Assembly (NCBI RefSeq): GCF_003334765.1
Contig: NZ_QOWT01000011.1
Reading direction: 5' to 3' (one strand)
DNA length: 64,000 nucleotides
Source: Escherichia coli
Lineage (GTDB): Bacteria; Pseudomonadota; Gammaproteobacteria; Enterobacterales; Enterobacteriaceae
This document shows positions 22,691 to 22,718 of the stretch, one piece after another. Each line of letters starts with the position of its first letter. Position 1 is the stretch's first letter. The translations under genes and the position numbers were made by a program. Below the pieces are notes generated by a model. The model saw only the letters and a program-made list of their open reading frames with translations. It was not told where the DNA came from and did not search any database.

Positions 22691-22718
22691 GATTCTGCAG
22701 ACACTGTCTGCAGAATTC
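22691..22718. repeat. Single copy of the same dyad-symmetric unit between the convergent yhcH and yhcG stops
   Basis: gattctgcagac-act-gtctgcagaattc. Confidence 0.7.

Follow-up and report, generated by a model that had tools for sequence, protein, structure and literature searches.

A palindrome within yhcG-family coding sequences and its probable orphan copies at an mRNA 3' end and a deletion boundary in Escherichia coli

Quasipalindromes act as hotspots of template switching in E. coli and palindromes stimulate deletion there, a subject associated with Ripley, the Lovett laboratory and SbcCD. Hairpins have a further part to play in RNA: where transcripts are terminated by Rho, as Dar and Sorek are said to have found in 2018 (cited in PMC7815308), they set the 3' ends that processing leaves. 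Elements that are conserved at the nucleic-acid level so widely inside coding sequences as the one described below are, to our knowledge, rare. A described set of protein-coding palindromes is that of the Rickettsia palindromic elements (RPEs), reported by Ogata et al. (2000, 2002; as cited in PMC4316617). With these, and with the REP/BIME units, the RAYT genes and the attC sites of integrons, the present locus shares several features and differs in others.

What are two closely similar hairpins doing behind unrelated genes of E. coli? The two intergenic palindromes, here called pal1 and pal5, are probably orphan copies of a palindrome that is native to the coding sequence of the yhcG (DUF1016) family. 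Explained in this way, the two hairpins are tied on the one hand to a mapped mRNA 3' end and on the other to a common 7-kb structural polymorphism, namely whether the yhc fimbrial genes, gltF and yhcG are present, which concerns about 17% of complete genomes. Behind them stands an apparently undescribed rule, by which the genes of a single protein family, be they from Bacteria, Archaea or phages, retain a palindrome in their DNA at one set point of the coding sequence.

Five copies of one palindrome around yhcG

The window, by which is meant the whole 64-kb stretch of DNA that was analysed, includes the region nanATEK-yhcH(nanQ) / yhcG-yhcFEDA-gltF-gltDB, which is natural E. coli DNA. Within the window CAGACNNNGTCTG occurs 5 times against 0.03 expected, a number reached in none of 100 shuffles, and the 25-nt pattern ATTCNNCAGACNNNGTCTGNNGAAT, searched with up to 3 mismatches, returns the identical five sites and none besides, the units reading ATTCnnCAGACnnnGTCTGnnGAAT. 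A repeat search of the window likewise joins the five copies into one family, so that the local repeat family that an earlier note on this DNA had perceived within about 7 kb is borne out. The copies span 7.2 kb and have the shared form ATTyNN-CAGAC-N3-GTCTG-NNrAAT, in which the CAGAC/GTCTG core and the outer ATT/AAT are common to all five, and the free stem positions vary from copy to copy yet remain complementary (TG/CA, GC/GC, TTGG/CCAA).

Three of the copies lie in frame within yhcG at a period of 39 bp, each encoding I-x-Q-T-x-S-[GA]-[EK]. The other two, pal1 (GATTCTGCAGACACTGTCTGCAGAATTC) and pal5 (GATTCGCCAGACACAGTCTGGCGAATTC), are intergenic and stand at the coordinates first given for them (Table 1). 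pal1 is found 18 nt past the yhcH/nanQ stop and 13 nt past the yhcG stop, and pal5 13 nt past that of gltD; the distances in the earlier note were right to within one base, and both intergenic copies have the position of 3' hairpins. The asymmetry between a left GATTC and a right GAATTC, visible in the architecture that it gave, is real and recurs in yhcG of Salmonella and Citrobacter, whose one in-gene palindrome has an arm end (...GAATCT) that is translated E-S. The EcoRI and PstI sites in the units raise the question of an engineered scar, a candidate that was rejected: every one of the 5,426 complete E. coli genomes has a match to this natural region, and natural isolates match it over its full length at 100% identity.

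Table 1. Coordinates of the palindromes and of the associated genes and segments in the window
Feature	Position	Strand	Description
pal1	22691..22718		Orphan palindrome between the convergent yhcH/nanQ and yhcG stops; arms like those of in-gene unit 3 (TCTGCAGAC)
pal5	29830..29857		Orphan palindrome 3' of gltD; 92% identity with in-gene unit 4
In-gene unit 4 (first in gene order)	23531..23557	-	Sense AATTCGCCAGAC-aat-GTCTGGCGAATT; EIRQTMSGEL; 12/12 pairs
In-gene unit 3	23489..23521	-	Encodes GIPQTPSAEF; one stem mismatch; 11/12 pairs
In-gene unit 2 (third in gene order)	23450..23482	-	Encodes KIWQTLSAKS; 15-bp arms; 12/12 pairs
yhcG	22732..23859	-	DUF1016_N and YhcG_C PD-(D/E)XK nuclease; host gene of the palindrome
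7.1-kb segment yhcG, yhcF, yhcE, yhcD, yhcA, gltF	22719..29829		Limits are pal1 and pal5; missing in CFT073-type (B2) strains, where one palindrome remains
5.9-kb gltF-yhcADEF insertion	23989..29868		Relative to E. coli strains with yhcG directly after gltD
gltD	29871..31289	-	mRNA 3' end just beyond pal5
yhcH/nanQ	22208..22672	+	Closes the nan operon; runs towards yhcG (convergent)

The distribution across the species was followed with 32 synthetic unit variants, which were compared by BLAST with the 5,426 complete E. coli genomes, a screen that covers units with a CAGAC core and ATTC/GAAT arms only. The median is 2 places per genome and the maximum 6, and all the places listed are at yhcG or beside gltD. 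The suggestion of a family dispersed over the genome is therefore not upheld in E. coli, as far as the 32 variants reach; relatives did come to light in the yhcG-family genes of other taxa. A search of positions 22000-30500 against Rfam, with E-values up to 10, gave nothing relevant.

The coding palindrome of the YhcG/DUF1016 family

The product of yhcG matches the candidate defence gene PDC-S02 of PADLOC, and its nearest fold is that of NucS. A YhcG model was not found in NCBIfam, nor was a solved structure found by sequence, and the literature on yhcG, DUF1016 and PDC-S02 yielded no description of the palindrome. Enterobacterial homologues have 1, 2 or 3 units, which correspond to proteins of 349, 362 and 375 aa, and other alleles have a 36-bp period. 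Well beyond the enterobacteria, a scan with ATTNNNCAGACNNNGTCTGNNNAAT over one genome per species returned at least 120 stretches, which come from Archaea as well as a wide range of bacterial phyla. Among the matches listed, all three free stem positions are complementary in 80 of 133, where chance would give 1 in 64, and 88 fall, near residue 100-150, in open reading frames with a YhcG match at E < 1e-8.

A second sample was drawn by the alignment of the C-terminal nuclease domain alone, which fetched 80 loci from viral or prophage contigs and left 57 non-redundant genes. At the homologous site, in a linker that precedes the nuclease domain by about 76 aa, 48 of these 57 genes (84%) have at least 10 of 12 Watson-Crick pairs; for control windows the figure is 1 of 57. 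The palindrome of the family has arms of about 13 bp, a 3-nt R-N-Y centre and an outer AATT. Its stems differ widely from gene to gene (for instance CAATTGCGTCCGCagtGCGGACGCAATTG, GAATTCTCGTATCactGATACGAGAATTG and CAATTCGTCACCAagtTGGTGACAAATTA) and the encoded peptides vary accordingly (IASAVRTQ, ILVSLIRE and IRHQVGDK). Moreover, three codon phases occur, with several genes reading the palindrome out of the usual phase, as in EFARQCLTN. In the alignment of the 57 sequences 85.8% of the cells are paired against 57.5% when shuffled, a percentage that is inflated by the choice of each palindrome centre as the best within an 80-aa window, an effect that the control windows bound. The covariation score is 0.694 against 0.170 for shuffled sequences, being reached in none of 500 shuffles, slid controls do not exceed 0.143, and 12 of the 13 pairs change on both sides. 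The in-gene palindrome is thus maintained by compensatory change at the level of the nucleic acid, whatever the peptide. That it arises by chance or as a by-product of coding was rejected on account of the covariation, the several codon phases and the intergenic copies.

The place of the palindrome within the gene is equally regular. Of 146 in-gene palindromes, 128 lie 240-420 nt from the gene start, and the units, of which there are 1-4, multiply in frame, 25 of 26 inter-unit spacings being multiples of 3. In the protein alignment the segment appears as a linker of very variable length, and in the AlphaFold2 model of YhcG residues 101-120 have a pLDDT below 50 and residues 97-125 are without secondary structure. 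The three in-gene units of the window have all the characters of the family, that is the arms, the centre, the outer AATT, the linker site and the co-varying arms. pal1 and pal5 share with the enterobacterial unit the length, the core, the type of centre, the outer ATT/AAT and the GAATC(T/A) end, and when they are read in the frame of the family they give ILQTVSAES and IRQTVSGES, respectively, both of which match that unit.

Is it the DNA or the RNA whose pairing is kept? Mismatched cells are few, and in the sample drawn by the C-terminal domain they include 17 sense-strand G-T and 19 A-C cells, with no strand bias; the ratio of transition-type to other mismatches is 75 to 21 in the pattern-selected set and 36 to 34 in the C-terminal-domain sample. 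As G-T is as rare as A-C in the sense strand, the constraint is symmetric and of the DNA type, unlike that expected of RNA from the sense strand. Selection on the in-gene palindrome as a sense-strand RNA hairpin is therefore unsupported, for in that case G-U should exceed A-C, which it does not. Further, units within one gene differ symmetrically and with compensation, as with CAGGC..GCCTG and CAGAC..GTCTG, or TTG/CAA and GTG/CAC, such that pairing or conversion within the unit is favoured over a protein that reads half-sites. Taken together the data favour within-strand pairing at the DNA level or conversion from arm to arm.

Orphan copies, mRNA 3' ends and rearrangements

As RNA, pal1 is predicted to fold into a hairpin of -19.4 kcal/mol on the plus strand (z -4.3) and of -16.6 kcal/mol on the minus strand (z -3.3), and pal5 into one of -21.5 kcal/mol (z -5.0), with z values of -3.3 to -5.2 for both orphans together. 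There is no T-run at these hairpins, and a terminator consensus scan of 22400-30100 lists six other sites and none of the five units; with no T-run, true termination at the orphan hairpins is unlikely. The curated Term-seq table of Adams et al. 2021 (PMC7815308) gives a primary 3' end of gltD at MG1655 3360660(+), with a sequence ending ...GAATTCGCCAGACTGTGTCTGGCGAATCAAA. By the numbering, which was checked on the MG1655 record, this position is 29827 of the window on the minus strand, 3 nt beyond the last base of pal5. That study also places a Rho termination region within gltF at 3361307 (Rho score 4.1), about 650 nt beyond the gltD 3' end. For pal1 and the in-gene units no 3' end is entered in the Term-seq tables, which does not count against one there, since yhcG and the nan operon are poorly expressed in the media used; the genes of this locus are not among the entries of the Term-seq supplements of the TERMITe paper. 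The 3'-end mapping that the earlier note had called for is in this way answered from published data for pal5, where the end adjoins the hairpin; its idea of a REP-like stabiliser holds in part, again for pal5, as regards the function of a 3' hairpin. The unit itself is no REP.

The mechanism that these positions suggest is one in which gltD transcripts are terminated by Rho in gltF and are then trimmed back to the pal5 hairpin, which is the way of REP-type hairpins. Once transcribed, the orphan hairpins, with predicted energies of -17 to -22 kcal/mol, would block 3'-to-5' exonucleases and so provide the flanking convergent genes with a REP-like definition and protection of their 3' ends. The step in which an exonuclease would be halted at gltD is inferred from what is generally known of such hairpins (Dar and Sorek 2018, as cited in PMC7815308).

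In DNA, the units, being short repeats, may favour deletions, duplications and gene conversion in patches, and the orphans and in-gene units are the end-points of real rearrangements, of which there are a 7.1-kb deletion in B2 strains, one of 0.78 kb in E. albertii and a break in BL21. Four arrangements of the locus may be distinguished. In type C gltD is followed by a 183-bp spacer, yhcG, pal1 and nanQ, and pal5 is missing; together with type D it accounts for 3,140 genomes, and pal1 is present in type C E. coli (L208). The gltD-to-yhcG arrangement is also that of E. albertii, Salmonella and Citrobacter and is for this reason ancestral. Type A, to which the window belongs, has the 5.9-kb gltF-yhcADEF insertion in place of 53 bp after gltD, with pal5 11-13 bp inside the gltD-proximal end of the insertion; 1,118 genomes match the 9.5-kb query over 80% or more of its length. 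Type B, found in 946 genomes and exemplified by CFT073 and Nissle (B2), has a gap of 67 bp between nanQ and gltD with one palindrome in it. To one side of this palindrome stands the flank of pal1, to the other the 13 bp found between pal5 and gltD. As these 13 bp are part of the insertion, type B is best read as the product of a 7.1-kb deletion between pal5 and pal1, the CFT073 palindrome itself being no simple chimera of the pal1 and pal5 of the window. Lastly, in type D (BL21) yhcG is broken at the outer edge of a unit, with foreign DNA adjoining.

A comparable event is seen in E. albertii, where yhcG stops after the second unit and this unit is joined, with 20 nt of overlap, to the arm of pal1 on the nanQ side, a deletion of 0.78 kb between unit and pal1 that removed the nuclease domain. 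The age of pal1 as a feature of the yhcG 3' UTR is accordingly at least that of the split between E. coli and E. albertii. Perfect palindromes persist in the truncated yhcG genes of both E. albertii and BL21. In other taxa the truncated members of the family have their breaks at profile positions 96-127, where the palindrome lies, and E. coli yhcG alleles that are 95-99% identical elsewhere fall to 70-75% in residues 61-100, with units that differ. Partial family hits were also inspected for N- and C-terminal parts on opposite strands, as a sign of inversion, and gave no clear case. These observations account, on the side of annotation, for DUF1016 genes being so often truncated or variable in length at one spot. 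The deletions could arise by short-repeat recombination or by slippage that the hairpin stimulates. Recombinogenic orphans that serve as mRNA 3'-end hairpins are the best reading of the two intergenic copies.

Orphans are also found around family genes elsewhere. Within 250 bp of a family gene the density of palindromes with 11 or more of 12 pairs is about 11 times that at greater distances, a count that includes ordinary terminators. A family-type orphan lies close to about 9 of 114 genes and in most cases repeats the stems of the unit inside the gene. At six loci the end of the orphan is 16-21 nt ahead of the ATG and directly precedes a Shine-Dalgarno sequence; at L067 a further copy begins 4 nt past the stop; and at L089 a 51-bp direct repeat containing the palindrome flanks a complete family gene, the repeats resembling fragments of such a gene (NFPICQTVSGKFD*). 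The yhcG genes of Salmonella and Citrobacter are without orphans, and no DUF1016 remnant at E < 0.01 flanks pal5. Orphans with no family gene nearby stand a few bases past stop codons or between convergent genes, and some of those far from DUF1016 genes could be ordinary hairpins that resemble the unit by chance.

Candidate roles and known systems

Why should a family of nucleases carry a palindrome at all? The family is an uncharacterised one (PDC-S02 of PADLOC), and the palindrome offers a handle on its substrate or its regulation. The analysis leans, for the role in yhcG, to a cis-acting hairpin or cruciform rather than to the operator of a protein, and one option is that such a hairpin affects the expression of the very gene in which it lies. 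A second option would have the palindrome as the cis site of the YhcG-family nuclease, a hairpin or cruciform in DNA, or a hairpin in RNA, that is bound or cut by the gene's own product, whether for the autoregulation of a toxic defence nuclease or as a selfish module of nuclease plus palindrome that left the E. coli orphans as footprints. That these candidate anti-phage genes carry in their own frame a structure recognised by their product is a tentative proposal, to be doubted more than believed. In its favour, the gene product is the only factor that accompanies the palindrome wherever it occurs, be it in Bacteria, Archaea or phages, and the constraint looks DNA-level, with Watson-Crick pairs only and no strand bias. 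The orphans bracket the gene tightly, either before the ATG in the six loci or, in others, 4-14 nt past the stop; their stems match those of the cognate gene; the direct repeat at L089 encloses a complete gene; and both the rearrangements and the hypervariable patch centre on the units. Against the proposal, spread must have been feeble, given only two orphans per E. coli genome, both at the locus, and family-type orphans near so few of the genes surveyed; Salmonella and Citrobacter have the gene and no orphans; and deletions between repeats of 20-28 bp require no dedicated enzyme. Were it true, the family would represent a new module of nuclease and palindrome extending from Archaea to phages, a functional analogue of RAYT/REP with the repeat embedded in the gene, which would autoregulate the gene and seed recombinogenic orphans that neighbours co-opt as 3' or 5' hairpins.

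It is unlikely, and rather more so than the nuclease site, that the in-gene palindrome has no function for yhcG, being a self-perpetuating quasipalindrome in a tolerant linker whose arms are converted one to the other by template switching. On this account the orphans would be what is left of copies of the gene that decayed and were cut back to the hairpin, a few of which were later co-opted as 3' hairpins. In its favour, the symmetry is perfect to the centre and made of Watson-Crick pairs only, and the loop that forms the host peptide is modelled with low confidence and varies greatly in length. The truncated genes of E. albertii and BL21 keep perfect palindromes, the L089 repeats look like fragments of family genes, and the scarce mismatches are mostly of the transition type in the pattern-selected set, though not in the C-terminal-domain sample. 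Difficult for this account is that one homologous position is kept in 84% of a sample that spans domains of life, which is hard to achieve without selection, that control parts of the same genes have no comparable palindromes, and that at six loci the copy stands so regularly ahead of the Shine-Dalgarno sequence, an arrangement that looks functional.

The operator of a dimeric DNA-binding protein, which the earlier note had put forward, is disfavoured and is now very improbable, even if the protein were the N-terminal domain of YhcG acting through looping like that of lac O1/O2. Dyad symmetry that is perfect up to the bases adjoining the centre, with no strand bias, would suit an operator, as would the core and outer bases constant in all five E. 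coli copies, and in other taxa a copy precedes the ATG by about 30 bp and is separated by about 325 bp from the one inside the gene. However, reading by half-sites predicts shared contacted bases and an unconstrained symmetry elsewhere, which is not how the compensated differences between units of one gene are distributed; the copies of the window lie at gene 3' ends or in coding sequence with none of the five at a promoter, and no regulator is known for these sites. The idea that the copies are REP-like repeats mobilised by a transposase, or bidirectional Rho-independent terminators that happen to look alike, is scarcely credible in spite of extragenic 3' positions between convergent genes, stable hairpins and a mapped 3' end next to one copy, for the consensus GCCKGATGNCGRCGYN5RCGYCTTATCMGGCCTAC has zero matches in the window at up to 3 mismatches (the earlier note was correct about this and about the missing U-tract), the median number of places in an E. 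coli genome is 2, the gene next to the copies encodes a PD-(D/E)XK nuclease and no RAYT gene is present, the terminator scan passes over units that have no T-run, and unrelated terminators would not share at least 24 of 28 bases with one another and with the coding units.

The preferred reading, that of orphan copies of a coding palindrome, can be set beside the systems with which this account began. With REP/BIME the locus has in common short palindromic units in transcribed 3' regions, often between convergent genes, hairpins that define or protect mRNA 3' ends, and units that are sites of rearrangement; with REP/BIME and RAYT together it shares units that adjoin and flank a gene for a nucleic-acid enzyme. 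It differs in that the consensus is absent and in that there are two orphans per genome in place of the hundreds of REP, and the gene is a PD-(D/E)XK nuclease and not an HUH transposase, with the primary copy within its own frame. RPEs resemble the yhcG unit as in-frame palindromic DNA in surface or linker regions that leaves the protein intact, with the nucleic acid constrained and not the peptide. Yet RPEs are 100-150 bp long, are restricted to Rickettsia and occur in many unrelated genes, whereas the yhcG unit is about 29 bp and occupies one position of one family in Bacteria, Archaea and phages, with long-term compensatory evolution.

The attC sites of integrons offer a different parallel, as in them structure is kept while sequence varies, a short outer motif is conserved, single genes are tightly bracketed (compare L067 and L089) and an apparent constraint acts at the level of DNA. 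In contrast to the perfectly paired 13-bp arms, the 3-nt centre and the primary copy inside an open reading frame that characterise the yhcG unit, attC sites are 57-141 bp, imperfect, endowed with extrahelical bases and R/L boxes, located outside coding sequences and in need of IntI; at the enterobacterial loci examined no integrase gene was annotated or called. The hairpins at Rho-processed 3' ends (PMC7815308) are matched by pal5, which is stable, lacks a U-tract and has a 3' end 3 nt downstream and a Rho region beyond, but such hairpins are normally unrelated to each other, whereas pal5 is probably a copy of the coding palindrome of a neighbouring gene. Finally, the quasipalindrome hotspots have their counterpart in arms that stay symmetric and in deletion and duplication end-points at the units. 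Those hotspots lie at arbitrary sequences, whereas here it is one palindrome that stands at a homologous site throughout a whole protein family.

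Breakage and mosaicism of yhcG

In E. coli T7Express/BL21 the yhcG gene, which encodes a DUF1016/YhcG-family PD-(D/E)XK nuclease, is broken where unit 2, one of its internal palindromes, has its outer edge, and ~470 bp of unrelated DNA stands in place of both its 3' part and pal1, the orphan copy that lies 3' of the gene. This DNA includes a 101-aa ORF annotated as 'transposase', for which no NCBIfam match was found. Many of the PADLOC PDC-S02 profiles (PDLC04797, 04800, 04805, 04808, 04809, 04811, 04812, 04821 and 04830) are short N-terminal fragments whose match to YhcG ends at residues 101-115, where the first palindrome unit begins or slightly ahead of it, as would be expected if family genes were often truncated there.

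Some E. coli yhcG alleles are mosaic, with an identity of 70-75% in residues 61-100 versus 95-99% elsewhere; the divergent patch abuts the palindromes, the number and period of which vary among alleles (36 versus 39 bp). The patch points to gene conversion, or an exchange between alleles, on a local scale. Residues 61-142 were compared with the proteins P0016, P0018, P0021 and P0030.

Strain background, transcript ends and unrelated palindromes

Strains such as ETEC1716 match the window with 100% identity. Its yhcE is uninterrupted and lacks the IS5 insertion that splits the gene in MG1655, and the window is therefore not from MG1655. In published tables (PMC7815308) the small RNA G0-10703 has a very strong 3' end at the yhcF/yhcG spacer, and a region of Rho termination is listed upstream of the palindromes, 79 nt inside yhcG. 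Three further palindromes in the window are ordinary terminator-like structures with A/T runs, e.g. tcaaaaccgacgccAAAagcgtcggtttttt, with no sequence relationship to the yhcG palindrome family.

Palindrome copies and family genes in other taxa

Several genomes, among them a Woesearchaeota MAG (L055), carry DUF1016 paralogues in tandem arrays of two or three. A Legionellales MAG (L005) carries two abutting perfect family-type palindromes, sharing one AATT, 7 bp 3' of an ORF stop, with no DUF1016 homology within 4 kb of the pair.

In six loci from other taxa the palindrome of the family gene is repeated in its 5' leader, the copy ending 16-21 nt before the ATG and just 5' of a Shine-Dalgarno sequence; leader and in-gene copies lie ~325 bp apart in L067 and L044, the two for which the centres of both copies were located. 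Finally, in L089 a complete DUF1016 gene, the internal palindrome of which has decayed, lies between two copies of a 51-bp direct repeat, each with a perfect family palindrome. The repeat resembles a gene fragment when read (NFPICQTVSGKFD*), and gene and flanking repeats together look like a cassette.

Coordinates of features in the window and in comparison loci
Feature	Location	Position
Compared yhcG region	window	23489-23859
yhcE	window	24757-25308
Unrelated palindromes	window	5482; 15423; 62304
G0-10703 3' end	window	about 24045 (+); MG1655 3367641(-)
Rho region	window	about 23780 (-); MG1655 3367906(+)
yhcG break	L207 (BL21)	8493-8962
DUF1016 array	L113	9266-12592
DUF1016 arrays	L039; L014; L055; L063	
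Palindrome pair	L005	4088-4137
Leader copy	L067	7502-7528
Leader copy	L044	135-161
Leader copy	L189/L184	about 1911-1937
Leader copy	L144	about 1904-1930
Leader copy	L058	about 8077-8103
DUF1016 gene	L089	1197..2240, minus strand
51-bp repeats	L089	1138-1188; 2324-2374
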